64,000 nt of DNA from a virus (taxonomy: Duplodnaviria; Caudoviricetes): positions 1-64,000 of the IMG/VR virus record IMGVR_UViG_3300037484_000296, one strand, 5' to 3'. The position numbers and the translations under genes are program-made. Shown here one piece after another: positions 2,041 to 58,211 of this stretch; position 1 is the stretch's first letter, and every line of letters starts with the position of its first letter. The notes beneath the pieces were generated by a model, which had not been told where the DNA came from, searched no databases, and saw nothing but the letters and a program-made list of their open reading frames with translations.

Positions 2041-3368
2041 TGAACACCTCCATACCAACAAGAAAATATACAACCGACCTGACATACGAGGAGCTTTCTG
2101 CGCTTGTCTCGGCTGCAAAGCTCAAGCAAGGCGCAAAATACCGATTCCCGTTTCAGACGCGGCATTTGATCCCGAATACCGCAGTCTACAATGTGGGACC
2201 GGTCGAATACCTGATTGCCGAAGCCGCAACTACATCTCAACTGTATTACAAAGTTATCTCTGAAAGTTACCCACGCGATGACATACGTTACAGCCTGACG
2301 GATTTAATGTCTCACAACAACGATAGCGGCGGTGTCGGGGCGGGAACAAAGGGATGTATATATTTTCGCCATGATACCATCCAGGATATTTATGCCGGAG
2401 AGGACTGGCGGGCAACGAAATATCGGTGGTGGGAAAGTTCGCCCGGTAGCGGAATATTTAATGTACGAACCGATAATGGCGGGGCGTATGTAGACCGCTA
2501 CACGTTTAACAATAGCGCTACAGCGGATTACTGCCGCATCATTCACATAGCTCCGTTTGCTGAATTAAATTACTCCGATCCGGAAAATTTGATAAAGTAT
2601 TTTTGTTTGGGCAATAACATTTTCGCGGGCGGGGTAACTCGTGTCGAGGCATTACAAGGATTCCAAGATAATTATTACGGAGCAGGCGCGTCAGATCTGC
2701 GATTTGGGTGGGGCGCGAACGCGCATGTAGTAGGAGAAAACGCAAACTCTAACATAATCGGCGACTGCTGCGCAAATATACGAGCCGGAAATAATTGGCA
2801 AGAGTGCATAATGATCTCCGAAAATAGTGATACTTACATCGGCGACGATGTGGGGTTTGTCACGTGGACGGAGGGAACGGAATCAACATATGTTCCGAGC
2901 GGCACGCAACGCTGCACTATCGATTTACCGGGGAAATTTCCCTATACCGGCAACCCTGCCGACAATATAGTTGTCGGGCAGGTTAATCAAACGGATAAAG
3001 TGGCGACACTTGCCGGGTCTACATTTTCAACCGAGGCCATCAACATTGTTGCTGGCAATATTGACTTGGAAAATTATATGTGGGCGGGGATTATAAATGT
3101 TGCCAGCGGGGGACTTAATTCAATCTCAGGAATGCCGGATTTCGACATTGAGATTCATCCTGTAGCTCCCCTGGTGGTAAGCCCAGTGGAGATGTCAGCC
3201 GTCAGCGCAAATGGTCAAATTGTAGACGATATTCACGCAGGGGCGGCATGGGCGTATTCGGCAAATTCCGCAGACTATTTTTCCGTGCGAAAGCAGACGA
3301 TAACAAACGGAAATGGAACTTTTACCATCGCCCGCGTAATTCTCGCAGTGGGTGGAGTGGCTGACTAG
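2040..3368 (+). CDS. putative tail fibre/spike-like protein
   Basis: 442 aa, N/G/S-rich beta-helix-like central region, coupled to upstream ORF. Confidence 0.5.
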   Translation: MNTSIPTRKYTTDLTYEELSALVSAAKLKQGAKYRFPFQTRHLIPNTAVYNVGPVEYLIAEAATTSQLYYKVISESYPRDDIRYSLTDLMSHNNDSGGVGAGTKGCIYFRHDTIQDIYAGEDWRATKYRWWESSPGSGIFNVRTDNGGAYVDRYTFNNSATADYCRIIHIAPFAELNYSDPENLIKYFCLGNNIFAGGVTRVEALQGFQDNYYGAGASDLRFGWGANAHVVGENANSNIIGDCCANIRAGNNWQECIMISENSDTYIGDDVGFVTWTEGTESTYVPSGTQRCTIDLPGKFPYTGNPADNIVVGQVNQTDKVATLAGSTFSTEAINIVAGNIDLENYMWAGIINVASGGLNSISGMPDFDIEIHPVAPLVVSPVEMSAVSANGQIVDDIHAGAAWAYSANSADYFSVRKQTITNGNGTFTIARVILAVGGVAD

Positions 3369-35800: not shown

Positions 35801-38800
35801 CTCGTGGACACGATGGGATAATTCACGAACCCTATTTTGTTCCGAGCAAAGAAGAATTTGAGCGTAGCGGTAAGGTTTCACTGAACAAGTTTGGTCGAGA
35901 ATTAAGAAAAAGCGAAGAATATCCGGGCGGAGTGGACCTGTATAGCGGGAATGAACATATAACCGGGTATACAGATTTTAATGAAGCTGCGGATATGAAC
36001 AGGCACGGGGTGTTTATTGCTTTTGAACCCACTCAAATCAAATCCGCAACCGGGAACACTGGAGAATTCTCCCCTGAGAACCCCAATATTCTTTACTCCA
36101 AAGCCCGTGGCGCGAAGGTGGCGAGTGAGGCTACCGAAAAACTAACTCCTTATTCAGCAAAGCCGGAAAACAATATTTTCACGGAAATAGCGAGCAACCC
36201 AAAACGGTTCTACAGATCATACCGTCAGTCATTCGCGGATAACGATCTTTCTAAGCTGGAAAGATTGATCGGCCTCCCGCACTGGATTGCCAAAAATTTT
36301 GCAGACTTCGACCGGGTGATGGATGTTGAAGAGATCCGACAAGAAAACAGGGACACCCTGAGAAACGGACTGCTTTCGGCAAGGATCAAGAAGAACAAAG
36401 ACGGAATGCACGAATTCCTTGCCCTCCCGAAAGAGTCAAAGAAGAAGGTTGAAAAGTACCTACTTAAGTCCGACAAGGAAAATAGGGTGATGAATCCCGA
36501 CGAATTGAAGGGGCTCGATACCGAAAGCAAATCGGCCTACTATTCTTGGAAGCGGGCTATGGATGCGGCGCTTGAACTTCGTATGCAGTGGCTTGAAAAA
36601 ATGAACCTGCTTCCTTACGAGGACAAGTCCTGGTTCGAATCGCTCAAAAACGTCACATCTCAAAAGGGAAAGAAGAATAGGGATAAAACTAAAAAACAGG
36701 TACTTTCATCAATACCGGAAGATAGCCATAGAGCTTTCAACGAAGCCTATAACGCGGTGATTTTCGGGAGAACCGAGATTGCCAAGATGCGCAGACAGAT
36801 AGGCCGAATCAAGTTCTATGTGCCCCATCAGAGAGAAGGAAATTATGTAGTTGACGTTCATGATCCGAGAGTAGCAAAGCCGACTGAATGGAATGAGAAG
36901 TTCATGGGTCCGTGGAAGGGAAGGCTCATTTGGTCGGAAAGATCTACAAATAAGGTCAAGGGAACAGAGACCCTGCTGAGACTTCAGCAAAAGTTTCCGG
37001 GCATGAAGATGTCTGAATACGTTTCAAAACAAGTGCCGGAAGAGATTTATCAGGCGATTTCCGAGGCAGCCATTGAAAGGTTCGTCGAGGGCAGTTTGAA
37101 ACGCGCCGAATCCAAGGAAGGGGTATCTCCTGAAGCGGCTCACGCTCTTAGAAATGCGCTCTTTGAAACCGTAACCGACGACCTCAGAAAGCGGGGATGG
37201 GAGAGACACGCTATTCATCGGTCGGAAACATGGGTCGGCGGATATGAAACGGAAAATCTTGACAAGGCTTTTGTTGATTACATGTCCGGGCTGTCCGGGT
37301 CTTTGACAAAGATGGAAGCGGCGTATAGATATACTCAAGCATTAAAGCAAATCGACAAGAAAAAGACCGAACTCTACGCCTATGCGCAGAATTACGTTAA
37401 AAACCTGACCCGAAACCAGACGGATATCGACCGAAAAGTAGGAAAAGCAAAAGCGGCGGCGTTTTTCATGTATATTACCGGGAAATTAAGTATGGTGCCT
37501 ATCCAGCTTACGCAGAACTTCGTTACAGGCATTCCCCAGCTTGGACGCTACACAAGGGGCGCGGGAAGGAAATACAGCAAAGCTATGGCCGACGTAGCGA
37601 CGCAGGGGCGCATTTCTAAGCTTTCCCCTGTCGAGCAAGCTGCTTTAAAGGACTTTCACGACAAGGGATTAGATCAAGCGAAATTCTTAAACGACATTAT
37701 GGGTCAGGTAGACGGCTATACGAAGGGAGCTTGGAATAAGGTTAACCGGGGACTCGGATTGCCCTTTTTCGCAATGGAACATTTTAACCGAAAATCTGCT
37801 TTTCTTGCGGCATACCGTGTTTTTGAGAATAAAAAAAACATCGACAATGAAAAGGGCTATGACGCAGGGGCCTTTAAGAGAGCTACAGATTTTGTACACG
37901 ATACCCATTTTCAGATGGGAAGGGCAAATAAGCCTGAATTGGCAGCCGGGCCGGGGCCAGGCGGGGCATTGCTTAATGCGGCATATACCTTCAACTCCTT
38001 CTCTCACAACTTCGTACTATCTCTCGCGGATGGGTTTAGGACGGGGAACGCAAAAGAGGGGGGATTATTGGCGCTCAGAAGTCTTTTTTGGCTTACTATA
38101 CTTGGCGGAATGACCTCAATACCCTGGTGGGATGACTTTTTGGATATCATGGAGAAACAATTCGGCTGGACTACACGGGCGACCGAGCGAAAATTCCTTC
38201 GAACTATCGGCGGGGAAACGCTGGAAACTTTCGGCATGCACGGGCTCCCGGCGCTTCTTGGATTTGACCTGTCGGGAAGCATGAAAACCGCGATCCCATT
38301 CCATGAGGGAGTTTCCGAGACCGCTATGGGGGTTTATGGTGGACTTCTGGAAAAACTGTCGAGGGGGGCAAAGTCATTCAATCGGGGAGACTATTGGAGG
38401 GCGGCTGAACAGTGGAGCCCGTTATTCCTTGAAAACGCCATGAAGGGCGTAAGAATGTATGGAGAGCCTGCCACCACTCCGGGCGGCAGAATAGTTTATG
38501 ATGCGGAAGGAAATCCGATAACCTTGAACGCAAAGGAGGCCGCAGGACAATTCTTTGGGATCAGGCCGGAAAAGGTATCCACAGCGCAGGCCAAGCGGCA
38601 GGAAATGATAAATACCGTCACCTACTACGCGGAACAGAAACAAGCGATCTACGATGAATTTGCGCTGGCTAATACCGCAGAGAAGCGAGCGAGAGTCATG
38701 AAAAAAGTGCGACAGTTCAATAGTAAAGTGAAAGACTTGAAAGGAGCGGTGCCGCTTATTACGGCGGCAACTTTAAGGCAGTCAATTATGAGAAAGCGCA

Positions 38801-38844
38801 GGCCAGACAAGAGGGCTATGTTATTCGACCGGGCGGTTCAATAA
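26827..38844 (+). CDS. giant polyvalent internal virion protein (iPPase-like, three HExxH peptidase-like, GNAT-like, LPD23-like, ADP-ribosyltransferase-like, C-terminal large polyvalent-type domain)
   Basis: 4005-aa ORF; GADGDAMDAFIGP; HELFH, HELVH, HEIQH; RKRGLGTMAM..L..FAD; RFEIDD; FRKWFGNS...EPLVVYHGS. Confidence 0.85.
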   Translation: MPIVSDKEFEGISSAKSGQILDESDFMKIAPNVPKPDTGVASMEAQASTIPQPKPVASAMPDLSTPVQPTSAMPDLKPDASPVSIKNVAKTLGQGAMDVAGGVSYLSQFVNPMDLVLKAAGRKTLGESGMELSEKASKALEESIPEAERPRPIFSENTKIIEPILKGELPTIELNPEARFSDVFMQGVRQVPQFFGGIAGKSEKAVSLANTIGQKVLPKLGSTLEQKAISMAEKHLAKTGMNLGTDAARKYAENIIGQTIMQAGIGAAQTGGMDAASAYTDVMNMKPEELQSTEYKDTYNDLLAKGQNPEDAKRILANGIANQVFIKTAPSGIPSQLLEFVLPEILHGGRLKRSVKGFLAGAPGEALQEGYEQRIQNVEEQRANPAINPEQGVAESMLLGGLMGGLPGAAQGLKGRPEAKKPYVPNLENQYSPVFPDLTIPPADKAAPAAPIADFDLTSMQPTERGQKIISAMPQMQALKETTAAWRQEAAQGRPAPFTGPGTAMPPIDLTAQDILSQQAEPQGQEERGRPVPVIPSYSTEQFEPGTIMDAEIPTREFTPPPPSQFASSVEKARAKQGPRKPLEMARPTETAMPALEGEIMSPTAKQGAVPSLESNIIEGKAIEEDRELTRKIDQAAYKAEMPKSEAQASAGNYRQGAIVPVQGLNFRAETPRGMFRGGKNKDTGEVWRTKMEAHYGKLIDLPGADGDAMDAFIGPKPTSPTVFVVNQVNPKTKAYDENKIMIGWDSLESAKQAYMDHYAKGWQGFGGIVPMTAEQLKQWATKENVKKPAPMLPAPEARKALPAPEIAGKPTSAMPESLQLPPERLSIPDQKVVKRPVQAEQKALPAPEPVSPPVETAPDSETKPSFDEPRAKKLIEKQGMIYKGTQEDADGNPVDVLFNDPQTDNATYTLPVGKVNAMTIARKIREKRAEFAKAQKPQEKVVEPEKKETPIVKESLQVGSTVRVGNSPEVHTIERELPQTESEKELGEKYFDVKNSKGEIDTYEAKDLKPVKVAEKKEEVEGGSKVRTIHALIESGDKEITRKEIANLYEVKQKQLYKGHIMTAGDVIRDYLKPNGIKVVGKKTEKPSIKTTLTVAGKGGTPNEKAVRQEDADDAAAEAGQKEKVATTTVKLGGKTEKTAMPDTAQTSHFQKLKKELASLKGKNDEQSQKRRVNILDELESYQEETAPTPEKIKSDRQAADEFLKKKLTESQIAGVAVRQQEEIPKEVVKDAVEAAPGTTAKELKAQKKFLIEHVDEAIKDAPEEIEGLDRKVQQINDINNKAKAAYDKAANLRHYKKDEDQVQKLFSEREAFHRQAREIQATIPSVTIEVPNDGNFTVYNDKATLKKFKEIVAKQFPTTPEKAKNLTQPSGKARGYRAPSELEEGIDFKLNGKPAYTNGHLLLLGETKAIPETLAKRWGGADKETNQENRERLAEQAKRLFAENAEKAKLPVGKIKFVAIDEKPYNPADKKNDFPYGVADYPIRGEKQSTTVLISGDVSNAISTDYYQHIIDHYPDATFKIGVEMSKGDNISPVGVYSKGKHAGIVMPWRSSDAVQIAREHMQEESASGKTESVKAPKQEEIKSEAPREAPKYASRDSDFTKISDYISKNYGSKVNIPAFTSKLREMVKSATITAENAEKVIARLKATGEVTIPKSQVLEIAAEEGSNVTRQIKAERSGDNLRVPESYGPLELEAFRLVEEDLGRTIAPSSRISPIQKQVAGEWEKFTGTKILFANSNNIPFDGAVPKKGYIIVSDALDTPQLLSKVIGHELFHNIEHVAKLSPELEAKYKNFSEIARRLITDAKVKEFMEVENKKRVNRLGMKQLETVEEAWSEYGAHILGDAIRDKRFYERMYQQDRNLFEKFVDYIVGVFKKLKILSPDVVESEYYSPEQAVRLINESSDLFAQYLRVKDDFGVVSGESAQGPAYSTKPNQKSLDSIVGKWEKLGVAIDAFDYRNKKNTRIPRQLLSINRIEVDRDKRKRGLGTMAMHDLTDFADENGLRIELSPDDSLGATSKGRLKEFYKRFGFVENKGRNKDFRTSATMYREAITAEGQPLYAAQGIAGKGMSKHDAIFEMKKLDIDFDNLENFVVVENEARLPENIQNDMLSKGLSGTIEGAYDADANAFYIIAGNIASEKRLQQVVQHELVHKGLRNVLGPRIEPIFTAIGKKYRNEIREIADEYNLNVNKKTEMLTAVDEFIARYGEEYKEQPLIKRMIAIVRSWLRNHGFTVDWSDNDILNLAGAALKAEGMGEGVRYSFAGKKAKGFNEAQGKFSDLADRQERFEIDDNKAELQNIKLDSEGVANRTILLSEVLSHAELFKAYPEFKSMLTNISIDPSLEESNGRFDEGTPDTKRYFGREPEITVNARNLEEAKDVLLHEIQHALQVRENFAKGGMPTVGGATELKDRFEEMQDEYNRLKKKLWAERTTRENARFGTLENEIRLLAKRLEGESVDRYRRLSGEEEARRVSARADMTAEERLGTPYERTDLREGEERIVRREGGVAESKESGKIPPMTPKKGAGEKPTEKNPVTPGSGNQVYRSRGPEDAQLMREEDPNGSLANYDKQSQREWLRGANPPSDGKITLYRATPEGKEIAAGDYVTSSRKYAEDHIKNNLGGEGKISQISATLDDIYPADGPGEFWYAPKNILTEKPESKPEGGKWTAKGWVVDFNPQPILDKYGLKNGDEDILQKFAGEGGFISDLSRSQGERYNGLEQQGFIERKHQDVGPGELMGQGFPAKEVDRMILTDRGRELLSGIKRVHREAEKKFFDQLASSDSPRSPQSGDQAALSRSFQEGEENVQGNEGLPESQPGMGEVYGEPGAGREGVNKLRPASVGSEQGDRREDRTTRGANGPILSNPSFRKWFGNSVVTVDGKAGSEPLVVYHGSPIKGFEQFDKNKINPYDPDGPYNGFYFTSDEKDARRSGDFPWGRPNTKGGGETRAYYLALQNPATRSYARKVANEIANTWEQKYPEARSLNDAVRMDLQTRGHDGIIHEPYFVPSKEEFERSGKVSLNKFGRELRKSEEYPGGVDLYSGNEHITGYTDFNEAADMNRHGVFIAFEPTQIKSATGNTGEFSPENPNILYSKARGAKVASEATEKLTPYSAKPENNIFTEIASNPKRFYRSYRQSFADNDLSKLERLIGLPHWIAKNFADFDRVMDVEEIRQENRDTLRNGLLSARIKKNKDGMHEFLALPKESKKKVEKYLLKSDKENRVMNPDELKGLDTESKSAYYSWKRAMDAALELRMQWLEKMNLLPYEDKSWFESLKNVTSQKGKKNRDKTKKQVLSSIPEDSHRAFNEAYNAVIFGRTEIAKMRRQIGRIKFYVPHQREGNYVVDVHDPRVAKPTEWNEKFMGPWKGRLIWSERSTNKVKGTETLLRLQQKFPGMKMSEYVSKQVPEEIYQAISEAAIERFVEGSLKRAESKEGVSPEAAHALRNALFETVTDDLRKRGWERHAIHRSETWVGGYETENLDKAFVDYMSGLSGSLTKMEAAYRYTQALKQIDKKKTELYAYAQNYVKNLTRNQTDIDRKVGKAKAAAFFMYITGKLSMVPIQLTQNFVTGIPQLGRYTRGAGRKYSKAMADVATQGRISKLSPVEQAALKDFHDKGLDQAKFLNDIMGQVDGYTKGAWNKVNRGLGLPFFAMEHFNRKSAFLAAYRVFENKKNIDNEKGYDAGAFKRATDFVHDTHFQMGRANKPELAAGPGPGGALLNAAYTFNSFSHNFVLSLADGFRTGNAKEGGLLALRSLFWLTILGGMTSIPWWDDFLDIMEKQFGWTTRATERKFLRTIGGETLETFGMHGLPALLGFDLSGSMKTAIPFHEGVSETAMGVYGGLLEKLSRGAKSFNRGDYWRAAEQWSPLFLENAMKGVRMYGEPATTPGGRIVYDAEGNPITLNAKEAAGQFFGIRPEKVSTAQAKRQEMINTVTYYAEQKQAIYDEFALANTAEKRARVMKKVRQFNSKVKDLKGAVPLITAATLRQSIMRKRRPDKRAMLFDRAVQ

Positions 38845-45270: not shown

Positions 45271-46149
45271 TTATCCTTTCTTTTGCTCGTTATTATAATA
45301 GGGCGTGTCTCCCCATTGGAATCCGGGGTCACGGCACATCAATTCGTGCGCCCTCTTATAGATATATTCCAATAAAGCTATATGCTTTTTATATCCATCG
45401 GGTCCGCACCAGTGAAGTTGTCCGCGTTCAATATCTGAGCATCCGTCATATTCCCCTAGCCCGGACATATATTTTTCTGCCTCATCTATGTTTTCCGTGC
45501 TGTCTCCCGGAGAATGGATTGCATTTTTTAGGAGAAAAAATGCTTCGCTGTTATCTTCTGCCCGCATAGCTATTTCGAATACTTCAAAGTCTGCTCGCTC
45601 ATCTTGAACAGACCAGCGGATGCGAAAACCAAATTCTCCGAATATGTCTTCTATTATAATTATTTTACCGGTCTTGTTAATCCGGTTTTCGTTTTTCAAT
45701 GGTTTTATTTGCAACGTCCTTTATGTATTCTTTGTCAAAGTCTTCTTGAGTATACGCAAGGCATTCTCCAAGCCTTGTTGCATAAACCCAGTACGTTTTT
45801 CCACAATGCTCGCACACGCTCTCGAAAAAAGCAGGGCTTTGCTTTGTCATTGAATTGCATACCATGGCGTCACAGTAGGGGCAGTCTCCGAAGATCATGA
45901 TTAGCCTTTCTTCTTATCTGGATAATATTCATCTTTATGGCGCTTAATCAGGAGTACCGTTGCCTTAGCGCACTTTTGAGCACCGTGGATCATGGAATAG
46001 AAATCAGCATCAGGGCATTCCCTGAATTCTCTGAGAAACCTTAGTGATTCTTCGAGTTTTCTTTTTGCTTTGAATATGTCTTCTGGTAGGGTACGCAATG
46101 GCTTCCTTTTAATTGGTCGGGGCGGCCCGATTTGAACGGGCGGCAGCAC
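45271..46149 (-). other. three hypothetical CDS (45271-45714; 45677-45898 Zn-ribbon CPYC/CEHC; 45901-46149, start uncertain)
   Basis: Coupled ORFs. Confidence 0.55.
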
Positions 46150-46190
46150 GGTCCCAGGCCGTGAACTCTACCAGGCTGAGTTACGCCCCG
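46114..46190 (-). tRNA. tRNA-Pro(TGG) with C32/C33 anticodon loop
   Basis: CGGGGCG/CGCCCCG acceptor, ACTC/GAGT D stem, CACGG-CCTGGGA-CCGTG, GCCCG-TTCAAAT-CGGGC, A73, CCA. Confidence 0.9.
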
Positions 46191-46772: not shown

Positions 46773-47236
46773 GATTTTTGCTCCTTCTCGCTCGGATAGA
46801 ACGCGAACAAGTTTTTAAACGTACTCTTCACTAATTGCATTTCTTCGCTTTCAACCGGCACATAAGAACAAATTGCAAACGTTTCGTCAAGGTCATACTC
46901 GTCTATATGTTTCTCAATGAAGTCGGCTATGCTCATGACGAAAACTGTACAATTAGGCGTTATAAATTTATCACAGTCTGATTCGTCTACGGAAATAAAC
47001 GCCTTGTGCTTCTGAAAATAAAAGCATTGAGGATTGTACGCGCACCCCAAATCAATCACCGTGAAATGACGGGGAATGATCGCCGCAAGGTTCTCGTAAA
47101 TCTCTGTGAAGCCGAGAAAGTCGGGGGCGATATCGCCTGAGTATTTTTTCAATATCCGCGCATATTGATCTTCCGGCAATAACTCCCGGAGCCTTTTCAG
47201 GTGTAAATTATAGCTTGCTTCGCGTAAATAATTCAT
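46769..47236 (-). CDS. class I SAM-dependent methyltransferase-like protein
   Basis: VIDLGC motif I followed by acidic residue at end of beta2 (FISVD). Confidence 0.5.
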   Translation of the reverse strand: MNYLREASYNLHLKRLRELLPEDQYARILKKYSGDIAPDFLGFTEIYENLAAIIPRHFTVIDLGCAYNPQCFYFQKHKAFISVDESDCDKFITPNCTVFVMSIADFIEKHIDEYDLDETFAICSYVPVESEEMQLVKSTFKNLFAFYPSEKEQKS

Positions 47237-47254: not shown

Positions 47255-47341
47255 TGGTGGGGGTGTAGGGATTCGAACCCCCAGCTCCGAAGAGCCACAG
47301 ATTTACAGTCTGCTCCCGCTCGCCGCCTCGGGCGCACCCCC
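47255..47341 (-). tRNA. tRNA-Tyr(GTA)
   Basis: GCAGA-CTGTAAA-TCTGT anticodon arm, long variable arm, TTCGAAT, G1:C72, A73, CCA. Confidence 0.9.
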
Positions 47342-49829: not shown

Positions 49830-49857
49830 TTCGCGTCTCAAGTTGGAAGCGTTAAAT
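49830..49857 (+). mobile_element. truncated attC-like right half
   Basis: TTCGCG...CAAGTTG-GAAGC-GTTAAAT; TAA of ORF 49852-50037 lies in the GTTA core. Confidence 0.35.
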
Positions 49858-50480
49858 CCTATTCATAGAATCCGCGCACTCTCGGCAAAGCCTCACGGTA
49901 TCGCACAAGACGGAAATAATCGCATTGTCTGGATTCGGCTTGTTTTGCTGTTCGGCAATATAAAATTTTGCCCGTCGCTCAAGTGCTGCAAGTGACCCTT
50001 CGTAGCGCCGTCCGGCTACTTCTGGCAAGTCGTTCATATTATCCTTTCCGGCTGACCGGGAAACTATGGGGCTATGCCCTCAAGCGTTGTAATACATAGT
50101 TTCTCGATCATTTCCTTGAATGCCCTGACGTAGTCTAGCGGCTTACTAGGGTCGTTATCAACGTGGTTAATATCAACTGAGACATTCCCCGCCCATAAAC
50201 ATTTTTCAATAATGATATGATTCGGGATCTGTTTCGCTAGGATTTCAAGTTCGGTCATAAACAATCTCTCCTTTTCTGTTCATCCATCCTGCCGCATAAG
50301 GATTATTGTCTTGCCGTCAGAACAATTGCCGCAACACCAAGAATTGTAAATATCACCGTAGCTGCGAAACAAACGACCTTGTTCCATGTTTGTTTTGCGG
50401 TAGGAATTGCAGCCGCAAATGTGCTCGCTAAAAATAGCCAAAGGAAAAGATTGTCTGTGATCATGCTCGCTTCCTTTCAT
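49852..50480 (-). other. three hypothetical CDS (49852-50037; 50064-50264; 50280-50480 Cys-rich)
   Basis: Co-oriented ORFs. Confidence 0.55.
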
Positions 50481-50532
50481 CCCGGTACCCGCAATAGCAT
50501 TTTTGCCCTGACGTTTGTTACATCTTAAAGTG

Positions 50533-50919
50533 TTATGACATTGCCGCCAGAAGAGCCGCTTTGCAAATTGCTTCCGGTGCCGTCTTTCCTTTAAAACTGA
50601 ATTGCGGCCCGTGGTTCGCGTCCTCGATCATGCATCTGATCCCTCGGTGCGGTTCGTATATCCAGAGATTAACCTCGTTCCCGCGATGGCGCATTGTTTC
50701 AACAACGGACCATGCATCGTTAATTTTTGCGGAAGGGTTAAAATATGACCACTCGAACGGGTTTGATTCAAATGTGACCATCCCGTCAACATACATAGGG
50801 AGTACATATTCGTTTGGAATGCCGTCGTAAACGGTCCACTTCATAACCTTTTCAACTATCAATCGATCAAGGCCTGGTCCCGGTTCCATTGCATTTACTT
50901 CTTCCCATTTCTCGTGCAT
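50533..50919 (-). CDS. phage ABA-sandwich-like domain protein
   Basis: LDRLIVEKVM.W...FNPS..INDAW.VVE...TAPEAICKAAL pattern. Confidence 0.65.
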   Translation of the reverse strand: MHEKWEEVNAMEPGPGLDRLIVEKVMKWTVYDGIPNEYVLPMYVDGMVTFESNPFEWSYFNPSAKINDAWSVVETMRHRGNEVNLWIYEPHRGIRCMIEDANHGPQFSFKGKTAPEAICKAALLAAMS

Positions 50920-51004
50920 ATCAAATCCTTCCTAATCTCCCTCCCTACTTGACATTAATATCCGTCACGGCTCCTATACGGCTTGTGTGGCGGGTTAATG
51001 ATGG

Positions 51005-51250
51005 TTATGGCCTTTGCTTTGCCTCTGCCTCAAACGTGGCCCGAGTTTCAACATCCCATGTTGTTATCTGCTTCCCGTCGTCAACGCGTACCGCGATAGG
51101 TTCCCGTCCAACTTTTTCATAGTGCGCCGACTCACAGATATATTTTTCGACCGCCCTCACAGCAGCATCTTCAGCGCTGTGTACCTCGTTGACCCCTGTG
51201 AGACTTTCCCATCCGTCTTCATGCCAAGATTCAATTTGGACTTTATACAT
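51005..51250 (-). CDS. hypothetical protein in putative decayed cassette
   Basis: AAGGA RBS; stop in GTTATGG core. Confidence 0.65.
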   Translation of the reverse strand: MYKVQIESWHEDGWESLTGVNEVHSAEDAAVRAVEKYICESAHYEKVGREPIAVRVDDGKQITTWDVETRATFEAEAKQRP

Positions 51251-51264
51251 TACATCCTTTCCTT

Positions 51265-51298
51265 ACGCGCTTCGCGGCGTGTCAAATTGGCGTTAAAC
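51265..51298 (+). mobile_element. truncated attC (central hairpin, L', R')
   Basis: 22 bp identical to attC at 58155 (CGCTTCGCGGCGTGTCAAATTG), then TTGGC spacer context and GTTAAAC. Confidence 0.65.
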
Positions 51299-51517
51299 GA
51301 GTTCTATTTCGTCAAGTTCAAATTTCAATTTCATATAATCGTAATTATCCCCTTGAGTTTCCCACACGTTGCCTTCAGCGTCGGTCATTGGCAAGGGGAA
51401 TTGCACACAGGCATATTGTCCGTCAAAGTTATACAACTCGCCTACTGTGTTCTTTGGCGGGCAAGGCGTTCGTAATTCCTTAAACGGTTTTATTACTCGG
51501 ACTTTTATGGTGTCCAT
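51293..51517 (-). CDS. hypothetical protein in putative decayed cassette
   Basis: GGAGG RBS; stop in GTTAAAC core. Confidence 0.65.
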   Translation of the reverse strand: MDTIKVRVIKPFKELRTPCPPKNTVGELYNFDGQYACVQFPLPMTDAEGNVWETQGDNYDYMKLKFELDEIELV

Positions 51518-51634
51518 TTATAGCCTCCCATTGCTCATTAACCTGCGCCCACTATGCGCCCACCCGATTAGAAAACACGCGAAAATGGGCTGTTTTTGAA
51601 TGTACCGGGCTGATTCGTAATCAGCAGGTCCGGA

Positions 51635-52165
51635 TTAAACGTTTGTGCCTTTTAGTCGCTTTCGGCCTTCCCACGGCGCAGCGTTCATGCCCTGCATCAG
51701 TTGCATAATACGCATTGCCCGTGCTCGGCTGTCCGGTGTGTGCTCTTTCTGTCGTTTGTCGTCGTCGCCTTCGTCTGGTGCGAAAAGTCGGTTCGCGTTC
51801 ACAAAAGCGGACATCATATCTTTCAACTGTGACCGCCATGCCTTGCGGTAGTGCCTGAAACAGTCCTCAACGTCAATGGCCTGTGCTTTCGTAAGCTCGA
51901 AGTATATTGCTCTGCCACGCTTCCAGTTCGTGATTTTCTGTGTCTGACAGATGTTCATTGCGACGTGAGATAATAAAGTCACGTCGAGCTTGTCCTTGAA
52001 CGCAAACCGATACGGCTTTTTCTCCTGCGAAATGATTTGATCAAGCGTGATCCCGTGTTTTTCGCAGAGCGCGTCAAGCATTCTCTGTGCGGTTTCTTTT
52101 TCGCCGCCGATGCCTGACCGGGCCAGCGCTTCAATTTTTCTGAGTTTGTCGATTAATAGTTCCAT
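51635..52165 (-). CDS. DUF2786-like N-terminal domain protein
   Basis: IDKLRKIEALA...GEKETAQRML..L.EKHGI pattern. Confidence 0.65.
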   Translation of the reverse strand: MELLIDKLRKIEALARSGIGGEKETAQRMLDALCEKHGITLDQIISQEKKPYRFAFKDKLDVTLLSHVAMNICQTQKITNWKRGRAIYFELTKAQAIDVEDCFRHYRKAWRSQLKDMMSAFVNANRLFAPDEGDDDKRQKEHTPDSRARAMRIMQLMQGMNAAPWEGRKRLKGTNV

Positions 52166-52166
52166 A

Positions 52167-52229
52167 GTTCAACCCCGCACATTATAAAGTTGCCGGACTC
52201 CCACCGGCTGTAGACGACATACGTTATGC
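52167..52229 (+). mobile_element. degenerate attC-like site
   Basis: GTTCAAC and GTTATGC at exact 7-5-8-24-7-5-7 spacing with central GCCGG/CCGGC hairpin; L boxes pair poorly (4/7). Confidence 0.45.
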
Positions 52230-52329
52230 GCTTTTGATCCCCGCCGAATCCTTTATAGGGACGCCCCAAACGGCACACGAGGGTTTGGCACTCGCTCGGC
52301 AGGGAACAGAAACGCACAACCCGAATCTG

Positions 52330-52611
52330 TGTTACATTTTCTGTTACAATTTTGTTACGGAGAAGAGGGAAGAGGTAAAATCAGGCTTGTAAGTGATTGA
52401 AATAGAATAGAATGGGAATGGTGCCGCTGCCCAGGATCGAACTGGGATGGTCAAAGACCGAGAGATTTTAAGTCTCTTTTGCAGCGCTTTATACCCCTTC
52501 GCTATCTGCTTGATTTTACTGTTTTCCCTTTCTCCGCCAAATACTTACCGGCTTTATTCTGTCGGCTATAATTGGCCACAATTGGCCAGACCACCAACCG
52601 TCAGTGTTACA
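52330..52611. promoter_or_regulatory. attP region: 59-bp core identical in form to the 3' half of tRNA-Leu(TAA) (52419-52477, minus strand) plus flanking arm-type repeats
   Basis: Minus strand AGAGA-CTTAAAA-TCTCT, variable arm, CCCAG-TTCGATC-CTGGG, CAGCGGC-A-CCA with no 5' half; TGTTAC at 52330, 52342, 52353, 52605; AATTGGCCA at 52570, 52580. Confidence 0.85.
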
Positions 52612-52645
52612 TTAATGCTACGTTTTTAAATCGGCTACTATTCGT

Positions 52646-53437
52646 TCAAATGCCCCACTCGTTCTCTTTGGGGGCTTCTTTGCTTTCATAGATAATCCAT
52701 TGCCCTTTATGGTCTGGGCGAGGGTCCATGTGCTTATAGCCGGGCTTGCAACCTACGGGCCTTCCTTTTGAGTCGCACGGCGCGAGATCGGAAATTTCAC
52801 AGCCGCATGGCACGTCGGGACAATAAAGTCCGTCGAAACCGTTCTCCGCAAGCCATTTTTCTTTACCTGAAATCATTAAGCTACTCCTTCTCCCGCCATC
52901 TTTGCAAGGGCGGGGGATGATTGTTACTCCATATAGACGGACTTAATTTTTAGCATACGACACGCCATCGTTGCAAAACGTGAATTTGCGCCATCGTACT
53001 TGTATCCAAGCCCGACCAGAAGCGCGATGTCGGCAGTCTCGGCGATAAAATTCAGTTCCTTTCCGTCAACAATGGTCTTATATACAACTTCATCATCTGG
53101 CAATTCCGGGAACCATTTCATTGACGGTTTTTTGTTATGAAGATTATTTACTGCTTTAACCTCGACCATATCGCCTCCCGATAAGTTATTTCTTCTTCCC
53201 CAGCGCCTTCTCTGTTGCCGCCTCGACCCTTTTCTCGTGTTGTTTGCAATAGAGCTCCGCAGGGCCGTGACCGTTTGTGCGGCAGCACTGATCTGGCAGG
53301 CTCCCGCGGCCCGCGCTCCATACTTCGAAGGCGCAATATTTAGGGTTATAAGCGTACCCTCTTGGGTTGCCTCTCCATTTATTGTATCTGTACTCCCGGG
53401 CTTCTTCAAGCGTCTTAGGAGCTTCACTGTCAAACAT
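52646..53437 (-). other. three hypothetical CDS (52646-52876 Cys-rich; 52924-53169; 53186-53437)
   Basis: Co-oriented ORFs with RBS. Confidence 0.6.
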
Positions 53438-53621
53438 TTTTCTTCCTTCCCTTAATCGCCTTCTCAATGCACGGGATCGCAATATCACACATGCCCGGAA
53501 CCCTGCGCATTTTTCTTTCCCAATCCTGATAAGTACGGTATGGGGTATTCAATTCCTCTGCCATTTTCTTTTGAGTGAGCCCTAAGCGCTTCCGGGCTTT
53601 TTTTAATTCTGCGGCTGTCAT
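53430..53621 (-). CDS. XRE-family helix-turn-helix protein
   Basis: LKKARKRLGLTQKKMAEELNTPYRTYQDWERK. Confidence 0.88.
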   Translation of the reverse strand: MTAAELKKARKRLGLTQKKMAEELNTPYRTYQDWERKMRRVPGMCDIAIPCIEKAIKGRKKNV

Positions 53622-53628
53622 GCTTAAT

Positions 53629-53656
53629 ACTATACACGCAATGCGTGTCTTTGTCA
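53629..53656 (-). promoter_or_regulatory. promoter with palindromic operator, leaderless start
   Basis: Minus strand TTGACA, 16 bp, TATAGT; ACACGCA-A-TGCGTGT palindrome; ATG 7 nt after -10. Confidence 0.7.
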
Positions 53657-53684
53657 ATATGTTTTTTCATAGGGGCGGAGTTTT

Positions 53685-54851
53685 CTATTTATTATGTCGC
53701 CTAATTTCCTCTTCCTGTTTCTTCAAATATTCTAGCGTCTTATCGGCTACGCTCTTCTGTTCTTCCTCGCCGGTGATATTATACCGGGTAAACATGGAGC
53801 CCGTTTTCCAGCCGCCGATTTGCTTAATGTCTTCCTCGGGATTTCCGGCGTTCTTCATATTCTTCGCTGCGCTTCGTCTGATATCGTGGAAGATGGTTTC
53901 ATTCGCCTTTTTGAATTTGTTCTCTTTGCAGGATCGACACTTTAAATCCTCTCGCTTTTCTCCGAGAGAGAGATATTCAAAGTTGCCGCACTTTTTACAT
54001 TTGAACCGGATCTTTTGCCCGGTCCTCATTAACGCGGATTCCCATGCTGTGCGAAAATCCGTCACACGCTTCCCCTTGAGGTTGACGATATATTCACATT
54101 CAGGATATTCCCGCTCGGTTTTTTGTACCCAATCGAACACTTCTTGATAGAATTGACCTCTGAGGAAAAACCCTCGCTGTTCGTTATTCTTGGTCTCTTC
54201 CAGCAAAACGTAGCCGGTGATTTTGTTGAACTGATGGATTTTGAGCGTGAAAACTTCCGTCTTCCGTACTGTGCTAGCATATGAAATGAGTAGCGCTATT
54301 TGCAAATAGTCCGGCAGTTCCGGCTTAAACCTTAAATAAAATTCATGGTCAATGAATCCCTTTCTTACGTTGTTCTCTTCCAACTTTATTATTTTGGGTA
54401 TCCGCGCTACAAGCTGCGGCTCGTGATTAAAGCCTAAAGAAAACATTCGTTGAAGTGCCGACAGATAGCGATTTATATATGCGTTAGAATCTCCCTTGTT
54501 CTGACAAAATATAATAAATGATTTGATACGAGAGGGGATATGGATAGCTTTTTCTTTCTTGCCGAAAAACTTTTCCATGCGCTTGATTCTGTTGATTTGG
54601 CTGGTTAGAGACTTGCGATTATTGATCGTGTAATCTTCAATAAGAAGGCGGGAGAGGTCTTCAAAATCAACCTCGTCGATTTTCTTGCCCTTGTATTCAT
54701 GCTTTAAAACTTCGGCTTCGCGAATAGAAAGTTGCGCCTCGGCTTCTCTTTTTTTTGTCCACTTGGGCGATCCATGCTCATATTGTCTTTTTTTGTGCTG
54801 ATCGACAAACCAGATATGCCAGTACTTCTTGCGCCTGTATACGCCTCCCAT
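53685..54851 (-). CDS. int: tyrosine integrase with Zn-ribbon insertion
   Basis: Catalytic set R (STVRKTE), K (TKNN), HDIRR, GGWKT, Y (FTRYNI); N-terminal arm-binding-like domain; nearby attP. Confidence 0.92.
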   Translation of the reverse strand: MGGVYRRKKYWHIWFVDQHKKRQYEHGSPKWTKKREAEAQLSIREAEVLKHEYKGKKIDEVDFEDLSRLLIEDYTINNRKSLTSQINRIKRMEKFFGKKEKAIHIPSRIKSFIIFCQNKGDSNAYINRYLSALQRMFSLGFNHEPQLVARIPKIIKLEENNVRKGFIDHEFYLRFKPELPDYLQIALLISYASTVRKTEVFTLKIHQFNKITGYVLLEETKNNEQRGFFLRGQFYQEVFDWVQKTEREYPECEYIVNLKGKRVTDFRTAWESALMRTGQKIRFKCKKCGNFEYLSLGEKREDLKCRSCKENKFKKANETIFHDIRRSAAKNMKNAGNPEEDIKQIGGWKTGSMFTRYNITGEEEQKSVADKTLEYLKKQEEEIRRHNK

Positions 54852-54861
54852 AGGTTATCCT

Positions 54862-55056
54862 CTATCTGCCGTATGATTTTTTATCCCAGCACTCCTGGCA
54901 CTTATCGCCCAAAAGATGAAGGGCAAAAGCGATGATCTTTTCCCGGTCCCATTCCCTCAGGAGGTGAGCGGTAATCATTTTTTCATCATTGAGCACTTCG
55001 ACTGCTTTTCTTACTCCTGCCTCATACGATGTTTTACACATAGCCACCTCGATCAT
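54862..55056 (-). CDS. hypothetical protein in putative cassette 1
   Basis: Likely start MIEVAM or MCKTSY adjacent to attC R'' box. Confidence 0.55.
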   Translation of the reverse strand: MIEVAMCKTSYEAGVRKAVEVLNDEKMITAHLLREWDREKIIAFALHLLGDKCQECWDKKSYGR

Positions 55057-55106
55057 AACGAGTCGTTTGTTTCGGTCGCTCCGCGCAGGACAACTCGTCG
55101 TTATGC
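55053..55106 (+). mobile_element. attC: integron attC site (54 bp)
   Basis: TCATAAC-GAGTC-GTT(T)GTTT-15 nt-GGACAAC-TCGTC-GTTATGC; canonical spacing, extra base at L'' position 4. Confidence 0.75.
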
Positions 55107-55331
55107 TATAAATTTCCACATGACGTAGATCAACCCATTGTGCAAAGAATCTAAATCGCAAACACAGGAATCCTCACCATGCGTCATTAAAGTTTCCCCT
55201 CTTTTTGTTATAGCGATATAATCAGCGATATTACCTCCTTCATCGCATACCATCAACCAGAGGCCTTCTTTATCTGGTTTTGTTTCGCTATATCCTTGCT
55301 TTTTTCTGTATTCAATGCTTTTCTTTTCCAT
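55101..55331 (-). CDS. hypothetical protein in cassette 2
   Basis: AAGGAG RBS; MEKKSIEYRKKQGYSETKPDKEGLWLMVCDE...; flanked by two attC sites. Confidence 0.7.
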   Translation of the reverse strand: MEKKSIEYRKKQGYSETKPDKEGLWLMVCDEGGNIADYIAITKRGETLMTHGEDSCVCDLDSLHNGLIYVMWKFIA

Positions 55332-55351
55332 GCGACTCCTTCCCGACGAGC

Positions 55352-55405
55352 GCATAACAAAACGCTCGAAATTGACGCTTCGCGCAAGTCAGCTAAGCGT
55401 TAGAC
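55352..55405 (+). mobile_element. attC: integron attC site (54 bp)
   Basis: GCATAAC-AAAAC-GCT(C)GAAA-15 nt hairpin-AGTCAGC-TAAGC-GTTAGAC; extra C at L'' position 4. Confidence 0.85.
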
Positions 55406-55645
55406 CGCCTTCACTACGCCGTCCTCTAAAAACTTATCGAGATCTGCCATGCGGCGATAGTGAATACGCGCTCCTTTCTTGACGTAAGATATCTCATGCT
55501 TATACCGCAATTCCCTGATTGCCGTCAGCGACCGGCCAATGTAAAGCGCGGCCTCCCATTCTTCAAGGGTAGGCTTCCGAGAAATTACCGTATAGTATGC
55601 GGCTTGTTTATCCAGGGTCAATGCTTCGTATTCTTTCTGGGTCAT
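55400..55645 (-). CDS. excisionase-like winged-helix protein
   Basis: LEEWEAALYIGRS...IRELRYKHEISYVKKGARIHYRRMADLDKFL pattern (HTH_17/Xis-like); upstream of int. Confidence 0.7.
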   Translation of the reverse strand: MTQKEYEALTLDKQAAYYTVISRKPTLEEWEAALYIGRSLTAIRELRYKHEISYVKKGARIHYRRMADLDKFLEDGVVKAV

Positions 55646-55681
55646 ATTATTCCAATCCTGTAAACATTGTCAAGGTGTCTC

Positions 55682-55864
55682 TCAGACTTCAATAAAAGCA
55701 ATCCCGCATGAAGGGCAGGCGTAAAGAAGTTTCTGGTCTAAACGATAACTATCGTCACGCTCTACTTTCACCGGCAGAGAATAAAACGCGCCCTTTTTAC
55801 CTTGAACTACGTCCAGGCGTTCTCCTTCCCATCCTGACAGATAACCACAATGCGGACATTTCAT
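55682..55864 (-). CDS. small Zn-ribbon protein
   Basis: CPHC...CPSC. Confidence 0.65.
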   Translation of the reverse strand: MKCPHCGYLSGWEGERLDVVQGKKGAFYSLPVKVERDDSYRLDQKLLYACPSCGIAFIEV

Positions 55865-55879
55865 GTTATTGCTCCTTTG

Positions 55880-56052
55880 CTAAGCCAACTTACATTTCCT
55901 TATACTATTCCGAGAAACTATTTCACGTTGCCCGTTTTCAAACTCAACCATGATACTGTTTTTTTACCGCGAACTATAACGCGGCATTTCTTGCCCTTGA
56001 GTGTTTTGCGTTTTTCGTTGTTGCCCCAAGCGAAAATAAATCCGTATTCCAC
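55880..56052 (-). pseudogene. small gene frameshifted in an A7 run
   Basis: 173 bp GTG...TAG; one extra A gives MEYGFIFAWGNNEKRKTLKGKKCRVIVRGKKNSIMVEFENGQREIVSRNSIRKCKLA. Confidence 0.55.
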
Positions 56053-56053
56053 G

Positions 56054-57477
56054 TTACTTACTCGCTTCACATTTCGGTTCCGGCTTCACTTTAGACGGAA
56101 ACAGCCTTGGTTTATCGTGCCAAACAGTCGGCATTTCTCCTGGCTTCAACGGATTTTCGTTGTGCGATACGCAGTGCCGCAGAGCGCAAAATACTTCATA
56201 GCACAGGTGGGCTTGTTTTCCGGATTTTTCGCTCATGATCCCGTAATAAGCGTTTTGCTCAAGGTCTGGGAAAAGAATCCGCTTGAGATGTTCCAGCACA
56301 GCGTCAAGCCCCTTAGCTCTCTGGTTCTCCCATGAATCGTTTTTCCCCTCAAACTGATTGGAGATTTCATTAGTTTGCCCCATTGCAATACGCTCGTATA
56401 ATTCGAGGGCGGCAAGTACTGCATAGGCGTGTTCTTTGCTTATGGTTAAGGTGTACATTGTCCCTCCCGCTATTTATCCAGCGCTATATTAATGCAGGCC
56501 AGCGTTGACATTGCCATTTTTCACATATCCTCGCCGACGTAATGCGTCCGGCTGTCTTCTATAATTCCCCGTGCGTCTCCGAGAATTCTTTGCAACTTCT
56601 CCACCTGACACCACGGGCAGGGATACTCATGGCTATTTGCAAGATATTCACGAAGAAGGACGAGTATTATTATGTCGGCAGGATGTTCCCGTACCGATCC
56701 TGATTGCTCTATTATTTTTATTGCTTCATCGAGTTTTGGCATTCGCGTTATCTCCATGCCCGCCAAACAACAAAACAAATAGCTATGCAAAGTAGGATAG
56801 ACTTGCCGAGTAATAAAGCGTTTGGGCCTATATCTATTATCATTTCTCAACCTCTACGCGCTCACCGTCTGATTCGTTCATTTGCATGGCTTCCAGAAAT
56901 ACGACTGCGGCCTTTGCCTATGTGACGGCTTCTTTGATTGTAAGTTGGCGAGTTATGGTGCCCCTGCCATTACATTCTATACAACTGTCTGCCGGGATAT
57001 TGCCATGAGGCGACCATGGACATTTTTTAATCGCTACCAACCCCGAAGGAAGCGCAAGCATAGACTCCGCTTCACCGTTAGCCGTTTTCAACTCAACATT
57101 CATTGCCCTGCCGCAAGTCATGCGACAGTGCGTTACGATCCATTCTGCTATTGTGGATTTTAGTTTGTCCATTGTATCAACCTATCCTTCCGCAAAACCG
57201 ATTTAATACCTGGTTATGCGTATATATCTTGGATTAGTTCAGCAACAATACTCATGACTTTTACGCGGAACATGGGATCATTCCGGTATCGGTCTATAGC
57301 CCCTTTCTCCATTTCCACAATATCGCTGGCCGTACAGGTTTCAAGATTAACCGTATGCACCCTGTCAAAGTAGTGCAATCGTCGTGCAATAATATCCGTG
57401 AAGGCGTCAGCTATACTTCTGCGGGACCGCGCAACCACCGGATCGACAGCGCCCGCATTTTCATTCTGTGTTTGCAT
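56054..57477 (-). other. four hypothetical CDS (56054-56458; 56521-56850; 56918-57172; 57214-57477)
   Basis: Co-oriented ORFs with RBS. Confidence 0.55.
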
Positions 57478-57869
57478 TCGATCCTTCTTTCTCCCGGCGC
57501 GTCAGCCGGGTGTTCATCGGCGCTGCGTGGATGTAGAATTTCGTCACTTAACTTGGTGTAGCGTCACATGAGTTTTGCCGTTTTTATAGTAGTGTACCCA
57601 TGCCTGAACTTTATCTATTAACGATATTAATAGGCCGGCCGTTACCAGTGCTGCTAATACTCCGAAGTAGATAGACCAAAACATGTTATTCTCCTTTCTC
57701 GTTCCTCAATTCTCTGATATTGCAGCGCCACCGTCACGCCCGCTGTTGCGGGCGTAGCGAATGATCGCCCCATTGTGTGCTACCATCGCCGCCGAAGACG
57801 TGGTGCGGTTTCGATCTTTACGACCTTCCCGTCTGGATCGATAAGACGAATGCCTCCCTGCCTCATCAA

Positions 57870-57921
57870 TGAAAACTCTATAGCGTCCGCGCTTCGCTTG
57901 CGCGTGACGCTCGCGTTATCT
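57870..57921 (+). mobile_element. attC: attC site with degenerate R''
   Basis: CGT(C)CGCG-CTTCGCTTGCG-CGTGACG-CTCGC-GTTATCT; L boxes pair 7/7 with one G.T. Confidence 0.65.
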
Positions 57922-58143
57922 GCTTACCCGCTTTACGCGAACCGCATCTATCCAAATCTTCTTTTCGTTCGGAGTTATAATTCTTATGCGGTCCTCATAC
58001 GTTTGCTCGACCATGCCTTGCCGCCCATACCCACCGTGATCGTAAAACACAACCGACCCTTGCGGAAAGCTCATCGCCGTGGCCGCAGAAAGCAGCACTC
58101 GCGCCTTCCGTAGATTTTCGTATGCTTTTTCAAAATGTCGCAT
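57916..58143 (-). CDS. hypothetical protein in cassette 3
   Basis: ORF fills the space between two attC sites; stop in GTTATCT core. Confidence 0.7.
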   Translation of the reverse strand: MRHFEKAYENLRKARVLLSAATAMSFPQGSVVFYDHGGYGRQGMVEQTYEDRIRIITPNEKKIWIDAVRVKRVSR

Positions 58144-58154
58144 GGCAACCTCGC

Positions 58155-58211
58155 AGATAACAATAAAATCGACAACGACACGCTTCGCGGCGTGTCAAAT
58201 TGTCGTTATTC
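58155..58211 (+). mobile_element. attC: integron attC site (57 bp)
   Basis: AGATAAC-AATAA-AAT(C)GACA-18 nt-TGTCAAA-TTGTC-GTTATTC. Confidence 0.85.

Follow-up and report, generated by a model that had tools for sequence, protein, structure and literature searches.

A cluster of attC sites with probable integron-type gene cassettes in inverted orientation in a temperate tailed phage

Introduction

Integrons are the textbook system for gene capture in bacteria, and they depend on cassettes which face a promoter located beside the attI site. Here we analyse attC sites, the recombination sites of such cassettes, in a stretch of phage DNA of 64,000 nt (hereafter the window), which corresponds to the first 64 kb of the 90,267-bp IMG/VR record IMGVR_UViG_3300037484_000296 (G000). 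The sites are located in an 8.4-kb region (positions 49830-58211), and we consider it probable that the elements found there are integron-type gene cassettes of a temperate sediment phage, arranged as an attC cluster without integron integrase (CALIN).

Arrays of attC sites in phages are already known. Qi et al. (2023; PMC9892861) described 17 phage CALINs along with three complete phage integrons, and in their experiments phage attCs were recombined by the integron integrase IntI1 at G|TT, the bottom strand being the more active one. Like G000, the phage CALINs of that study are attC arrays without an integron integrase (IntI), and small orphan genes and DNA methyltransferases are their cargo. 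The text of the study does not discuss the strand of the open reading frames (ORFs) in relation to attC polarity, and the arrays of the phages TJE1 and PH101 are called typical there. G000 differs from these CALINs in three respects: every scorable site is antisense to the genes on both transcription arms, two cassettes are located between the excisionase (xis) and integrase (int) genes, and the arrays are larger (12 sites passing a model).

The attCs of class 1 integrons (aadA1, aadA2, blaVIM, cmlA1, estX and others) share with those of G000 the AAC/GTT R boxes, the 5-nt spacer, the 8-nt L'' box with an extra base at position 4, the variable centre and the chain of complementary cores; the GC-rich centre of the G000 sites resembles the aadA type. 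In class 1 cassettes, however, the top strand carries the ORF and the attC comes behind it (7/7 scored), whereas in G000 the ORF is on the bottom strand and the attC comes first in the mRNA sense. Further, G000 differs from class 1 integrons by the lack of attI, of the promoter Pc and of intI, and by weaker L boxes.

Results and discussion

attC sites in the window

Class 1 integrons on plasmids served as the source of reference attCs. A 60-nt aadA1 attC query matched 1,962 plasmid records at an identity of at least 99% (100% in the plasmid records listed), and 16 real attCs, each located behind an annotated resistance gene, were taken from seven of the eight integron regions fetched. The MAFFT alignment of all 16 was too ragged for modelling, and 11 sites of 60-72 nt were kept. 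The resulting covariance model (R1) is independent of phage sequences; its top strand is the ORF sense, and its structure comprises the R box, the L box with the bulge and two pairs in the centre. With R1 all 90 kb of G000 were searched with filters off; all E-values given for the covariance models are rough owing to a shortened calibration. A family model (R2) was built from the R1 hits in two phages, with the sites at 55053 and 57870 outside its training set. In addition, a weight matrix for the 3' half of attC was trained on sites outside the window; its background is approximately 10-12 or below. Tetrasphaera phage TJE1 served as a positive control: its three attCs known from the literature were all recovered by R1, and they are on the strand of the genes, as in the canonical layout.

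An earlier inspection of the DNA without database searches (the sequence-only reading) had proposed complete attC sites at 55053, 55352 and 58155 and a near-complete one at 57870. At the first three, R1 matched over its full length on the + strand, with exactly the ends proposed and with no match on the opposite strand. The strongest site is 55352..55405 (+; R1 30 bits, E 2.7e-5, model positions 1-70; R2 49.8 bits), and the site at 58155..58211 (+; R1 19.6 bits, E 0.018; R2 47.9 bits) was also recognised by the class 1 model. The weaker attC at 55053..55106 (+) is borderline under R1 (13.4 bits, E 0.88) and is confirmed by R2, which was not trained on it (20.1 bits, E 0.009); with 15.9 it has the second best 3'-half matrix score on the + strand genome-wide. 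The near-complete attC at 57870..57921 (+) had no R1 match at E<=10 and was recognised by the family model alone (R2, likewise not trained on it, 19.3 bits, E 0.015, at 57864-57921; 3'-half matrix 13.4). Its R'' is degenerate and retains only AAC.

In all four sites the first 7-mer ends with AAC and the last one starts with GTT, while the variable positions match RYYYAAC/GTTRRRY in part only. The geometry claimed for the three complete sites, 7-5-8-centre-7-5-7 with an extra base at position 4 of L'', fits their + strand with respect to boxes, spacing and extra base; the pairing of the L boxes falls short, as discussed below. Measured by class 1 attCs, the window sites are attC-like, and their modelled polarity is opposite to that of the local genes, since all genes near them are on the minus strand.

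By definition (PMC4889954), a CALIN consists of two or more attC sites which share a strand and are spaced by less than 4 kb, without a neighbouring integron integrase. The four sites on the + strand lie within 3.2 kb and form a CALIN in the sense of IntegronFinder: in the whole 90-kb record no match to TIGR02249 (integron integrase) was found at E<=0.001, so that the absence of IntI noticed for the window extends to the entire genome. A complete integron, with intI and an adjacent attI, is not present in G000. The tyrosine integrase encoded nearby (53685..54851, minus strand) was considered as an IntI and ruled out: it belongs to the general phage integrases (PHROG 1 integrase, E 5.5e-23) and is not matched by TIGR02249.

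Cassettes and their footprint

In cassette arrays, each R'' is expected to be complementary to the six bases at the start of its own cassette and not to the adjacent R'. We found this footprint at 17 junctions in G000 and in two further viral contigs (G001 and G002, see below): 59 of 68 variable core positions match the R' of the previous site, versus 27/68 for the site's own R'. None of 20,000 permutations reached this value (p<5e-5), and the runs of complementarity are 7-13 nt long. Both junctions of the window fit without a mismatch, 55100/55352 over 7 nt and 57915/58155 over 9 nt; 4/4 variable positions match in each, versus 2/4 for the own R'.

Because both junctions fit the footprint, two clean single-gene cassettes can be delimited (+ strand). 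The first, 55101..55399, begins with the TT behind the G of an R' and reaches as far as the G of the R' that follows. It carries an ORF of 76 aa on the minus strand (55101-55331, reading frame checked), for which no family match was found. Its leading core (55100-55106) complements R'' (55352-55358) at every base and is not the same as the own R' of site 55352. The second cassette, 57916..58205, carries a minus-strand ORF of 75 aa (57916-58143); in this case the complementarity of R'' to the leading core extends over 9 nt, and the own R' again differs. The 75-aa protein is an orphan, with no homologue among 5.8 billion proteins. The single small ORF of each cassette is on the minus strand and has a ribosome-binding site of its own, and TAA constitutes its last bases in the mRNA sense.

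A tentative third cassette at 54855..55100 (+) was read from the sequence. It is suggested by an R'-like GTT core at 54854-54860, which lies in the 10 nt separating the int start from a 59-aa ORF (54862-55041, minus strand, TAG stop); the core is weakly complementary to R'' of site 55053 (5/7 positions). Two cassettes lie between xis and int, and excision of the units would bring the xis stop next to the int start. The xis-like gene itself (55400..55645, minus strand) encodes a helix-turn-helix protein (Pfam HTH_17, E 2.8e-5, below the curated cut-off), and its TAA stop is located within the R' core of site 55352. The view of the sequence-only reading that the early region is organised as a cassette system is nevertheless too strong. 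There are attC sites which bound single-gene cassettes, but the 8.4 kb contain approximately 25 genes with four attC sites, one half-site and only two clean cassettes.

Located between genes and overlapping with stop codons, the sites would fold in the mRNA, and this could also be expected of regulatory hairpins of an ordinary kind (terminators, or stems for RNA processing or stabilisation) which resemble attC by chance or convergence. Such hairpins would not explain why each R'' is matched by a core at a distance of 250-900 nt and not by its own partner, or why near-identical sites exist in unrelated phages with different genes, and we regard this explanation as hardly credible.

Polarity on both transcription arms

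R1 and R2 match one strand only, in agreement with the proposal that all window sites have their top strand on + and the genes are on minus. Since attCs are near-palindromic, we considered the possibility that the polarity was misassigned and that we are dealing with canonical cassettes, in which the top strand carries the ORF and the attC comes after the gene. In real attCs, 6-7/7 L-box pairs with the bulge at position 4 are formed on the top strand and 3-5 on the reverse. This count is tied at 55053 (5 vs. 5) and favours the minus strand at 57870 (3 vs. 6), which speaks for a misassignment. The extra base, on the other hand, is located in the arm in which + polarity demands it at 55352 and 58155 (58155 by eye). 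Further, the strand calls of R1 agree with experiment: the strand-tested bottom strands published for TJE1 and PH101 (supplement of Qi et al.) map to the bottom strand predicted by R1. Together with the duplicated unit of G002 described below, in which the site is upstream of the ORF and intI is located where such polarity predicts, these observations make a misassignment very unlikely.

The same polarity relative to the genes was found in the rest of the genome. G000, rated complete by CheckV, is a tailed temperate phage with genes for a major head protein, a large terminase, a portal-like head-tail connector, an exonuclease and the tyrosine integrase. The + arm of genes begins at approximately 66.7 kb and continues past the end of the record to 41.7 kb, and the genes from 66.5 to 42 kb form the minus arm, inside which the attC cluster of the window lies. 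On the other arm, seven attC sites are present at 76826-79817 of the genome, just upstream of the terminase genes, and a lone site is present at 71374-71431. According to R1, all of them have the top strand on minus, and the genes, including one for a Dam-like methylase, are on plus. These sites are better preserved than those in the window: their bottom-strand folds reach z -5 to -6, and in six of the seven sites of the array 6-7/7 L-box pairs are formed on the strand chosen by R1. R2 also scored two sites of this array, on the minus strand, which had not been used for its training.

Altogether 11 sites of G000 pass a model at E<=0.2. They form four clusters on the two divergent arms, and their polarity is opposite to that of the genes of the respective arm. 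In 7/7 intervals between adjacent attC sites the longest ORF is antisense, and the antisense-strand ORFs include real genes (Dam, Phage_ABA_S, HTH_17). The layout of canonical cassettes, an ORF on the top strand with its attC behind it, does not apply to these intervals, whereas the class 1 controls and TJE1 scored sense.

Inverted cassettes in other phages

The inverted layout recurs in other phages, although this was not remarked upon by Qi et al. (2023; PMC9892861). In Pseudoalteromonas phage H101/PH101 (NC_029094, 75919-77987) four attCs are on the + strand and the annotated genes are on minus, and the strand-tested bottom strands map to the minus (gene) strand. In Myoviridae sp. ctTUS972 (MW202573, 2069-3738) four attCs are on minus and the genes on plus. 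These phages are unrelated and have other attC sequences; their inversion rests on the database annotation of hypothetical genes. In contrast to these two, TJE1 is canonical, and Polaribacter phage P12002L is mixed: its two published sites map to opposite strands, with no R1 match below E 1.6.

A closer connection was detected with a 36-nt attC core from the second array of G000, which matched one IMG/VR contig, G001. This contig has nine attCs on one strand, and the longest ORF is antisense in 4/7 intervals and ambiguous in 3/7. At the DNA level G001 and G000 have the attC sites alone in common (92-97% identity), and window site 55352 is present in G001 with 96% identity over 48 nt. The GC content is 48% in G000, 55% in G001 and 58% in G002. 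The same site types thus occur in unrelated phages. The 61-aa protein encoded at 49852-50037 of the window has a 53% identical homologue inside a G001 cassette. Because G001 harbours the 55352 site type and this homologue in a cassette of its own, with no other DNA in common, exchange is plausible.

With a looser attC pattern, 27 metagenome contigs and one more viral contig, IMGVR_UViG_3300037483_001258 (G002), were found. The metagenome arrays are mixed, some being canonical and some antisense. G002 is a real myovirus-like phage with a Mu-like transposase and a contractile tail, and it encodes an IntI (270.7 bits vs. the curated NCBIfam cut-off of 265). In the contig piece 12504-16459, three attCs are opposite to the intI strand, and the ORFs, including a DNA methyltransferase, are co-directional with intI. 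Like G000, it has the same two attC types (with similar spacers and L'' starts), inverted ORFs and methyltransferase cargo. Unlike G000, it carries a complete phage-borne integron, which encodes IntI and has its cassettes upstream of intI and co-directional with it. Used as a query, the IntI of G002 found itself alone.

G002 contains a perfect duplicate of 715 nt, which comprises one attC and the ORF behind it in the mRNA sense and ends exactly at the crossover adjoining the 5' end of intI. This is the pattern expected of an excised cassette re-inserted at attI. The duplicate shows, independently of any model, that the mobile unit carries the attC in front of the gene, and its position beside intI indicates that the phage-borne IntI of G002 acts on such inverted cassettes.

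A further IntI homologue, 36% identical to IntI1 over 289 aa, is encoded at 2400-3257 of the metagenome contig Ga0074195_1017904 (L023). Three attCs are opposite to it, one of which fits the pattern derived from window site 55352; the ORF orientation is ambiguous. A departure from the rule that intI and cassettes are divergent was also described for the inverted integron-integrase group (Treponema and others; Cury et al. 2016, PMC4889954). That group is distinct from the inverted cassettes of phages, since in G002 and L023 intI is opposite to the attCs, as in the canonical arrangement, and the ORFs, in L023 tentatively, are the flipped part.

The findings in G002 also bear on the question of which enzyme recombines the sites. 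IntI is absent from G000, and two cassettes lie directly between xis and int, which is what one would expect if the hairpins were recombined by the adjoining phage tyrosine integrase, or by a Xer-like host recombinase, rather than by a classical IntI. However, the same attC types are found in G002 beside a bona fide IntI, with a cassette duplicated at the attI side. Moreover, the sites fit a class 1 attC model, phage attCs of such kind are recombined by IntI1 (PMC9892861), and the remaining arrays of G000 are far from int. We therefore regard another enzyme as improbable.

In two sediment runs, which are the likely sources of these sequences, the 55352 site type is present in other contexts on contigs of low depth. 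This fits a common pool of cassettes but is no proof of movement. Cassette-less or circular forms were not present in the assembled contigs of the two runs, and contigs cannot exclude rare ones.

Decayed sites and the question of present activity

According to the sequence-only reading, several decayed half-sites accompany the complete ones. One of them is supported: 51265..51298 (+) corresponds to the 3' half of an attC (centre, L' and R', with the R''/L'' half gone), is 94% identical to 58178-58208 over 31 nt and has a 3'-half matrix score of 14.1. An exact match of the 51265/58178 repeat was not found in IMG/VR. The other proposed remnants did not hold. The one at 49830..49858 (+) is outside the 25 best 3'-half matrix scores genome-wide, those at 50955, 51605 and 52167 are absent from the matrix results, and the one at 57201 scored at background level and on the wrong strand.

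The nine stops proposed to end in a core are indeed all TAA on the minus strand inside (G/A)TTA. In the minus arm (window 41900-64000, continuing to genome 66600), no stop context is commoner than TAA followed by C, which is present in 15/60 genes and accounts for 15 of the 30 TAA stops, versus 21% expected (p ~4e-4); no such enrichment exists overall on the + arm. The excess is compatible with older, eroded cassettes without proving them. At 46937-46965 of the window, two minus-strand ORFs are separated by a gap of 24 nt, at the end of which there is an R'-like core with a TAA stop. Its 3'-half matrix score ranks third on the + strand genome-wide, and it may be a collapsed attC.

Several of our observations weigh against integron-type cassettes in the window. 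At 55053, 55352 and 58155 (58155 by eye) only 5/7 L-box pairs are formed, while real attCs have 6-7/7. Folding of the bottom strands gave a divided picture: 58155 (-13.6 kcal/mol, z -4.15) folds like the aadA1 attC control (z -4.22), but the z values of 57870, 55053 and 55352 are -2.38, -1.73 and -0.60, and the last two fold no better than shuffled sequences. The R1 matches at 58155 and 55053 are modest by their E-values, and the R2 scores at its own training members, 55352 and 58155, carry no weight. Most of the claimed remnants at 49.8-52.2 kb fail with the 3'-half matrix. Finally, G000 lacks IntI, a search for its host through the attP core, described below, gave no match, and no close relatives of G000 were found in IMG/VR with its integrase, large terminase and exonuclease as queries.

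The weak L boxes and folds at 55352 and 55053, the half-site at 51265 and the excess of stops followed by C without attached hairpins are also what fossil cassettes would leave, i.e. footprints of past IntI activity which no longer recombine here and persist as intergenic spacers or mRNA hairpins. The lack of variant forms in the contigs of the two runs is in line with this, and the loss of attC by replication slippage has been proposed (Loot et al., 10.1101/2022.09.11.507474). On the other hand, the 55352 site is 96% conserved in the unrelated phage G001, 58155 and the sites of the other arm fold well, and rare circles or empty sites would not be revealed by contigs. Fossilisation is a possibility to be taken seriously, but we think it the less likely state of the cassettes.

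A possible integron lineage of phages

How could cassettes of this kind move in a genome without intI? In the mRNA sense (minus), the mobile unit starts with the folded attC, followed by a ribosome-binding site and a small ORF, whose TAA forms the last three bases before the crossover. Since the unit reads attC, ribosome-binding site, ORF, the ORF is on the bottom strand of the attC, the reverse of ordinary cassettes. The integrase would act in trans, as an IntI from the host or from another phage residing in the same cell. Having bound to the folded bottom strands, it would carry out strand exchange at the conserved GTT; circles would in this way be excised, or be inserted into an attC already present or into a GTT without an attC, for example at the junction of the xis stop and the int start. 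A host integrase, as suggested by the sequence-only reading, is only one option, and the sole cognate-looking IntI that was found is the phage-encoded one of G002. Phage early promoters would express the cassette genes by read-through, and the later loss of hairpins would produce half-sites and stops followed by C.

Entry into the genome without attI is plausible through exchange between two attCs or through the attG route described by Loot et al. (10.1101/2022.09.11.507474), in which cassettes are inserted outside att sites at a simple GWT site. The latter would let a first cassette enter at a place such as the xis-int junction. It was shown for E. coli chromosomes with IntI1 and not for phages, and it does not predict inverted ORFs.

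Based on these observations, it is tempting to speculate that phages keep an integron lineage of their own, with a pool of cassettes whose genes are on the bottom strand and with an integrase which is either phage-encoded (G002) or received in trans (G000). Accessory genes could then be shuffled among co-infecting phages largely independently of host integrons. We propose this tentatively, as a scenario with less than even chances. If it is true, the phage's own transcription would express the cargo. It is also speculated that transcription and replication co-directional with the genes would leave the bottom strand single-stranded, as non-template strand and as lagging-strand template, and would in this way couple cassette turnover to growth.

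The recurrence of phage versions with reversed genes is of interest for several reasons. It means that cassettes need not be built for expression from Pc, which touches the question of cassette origin. Further, phages may exchange accessory genes as cassettes, and the recognisable cargo consists of methyltransferases, which could counter restriction. Last but not least, standard integron surveys assume that cassette genes are on the attC strand, and phage cargo may therefore be mis-described.

Genomic surroundings of the cluster

Upstream of the xis-like gene, a promoter-like site at 55646..55673 (minus strand) agrees with 11/12 consensus positions and has an extended -10 TG; judged from the consensus match only, it could drive the downstream cassette genes. 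Intrinsic terminators were considered as an identity of the hairpins and rejected: 13 terminator-like sites were found versus 11.2 expected, and none coincides with an attC on the minus (gene) strand.

Near the integrase gene, the 3' half of a tRNA-Leu(TAA) with a long variable arm can be read at 52412..52475 (minus strand); ARAGORN did not call a full tRNA there. It is probably the attP core. An exact match of this core was not found in 185,579 reference genomes (GTDB, one genome per species; two scans), so that the host may belong to a lineage which has not been sampled.

On a 3.3-kb contig from one of the sediment runs, position 57550 is directly connected to 57696; the 145 nt omitted contain most of a 46-aa membrane-like ORF (57544-57684). 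This is a strain variant, the ends of which are not at attC cores. Among the early genes, tRNA-Pro(TGG) and tRNA-Tyr(GTA) are encoded on the minus strand at 46114-46190 and 47255-47341 of the window, respectively. The virion module at 26827-38844 of the window contains one single ORF of 4,005 aa.

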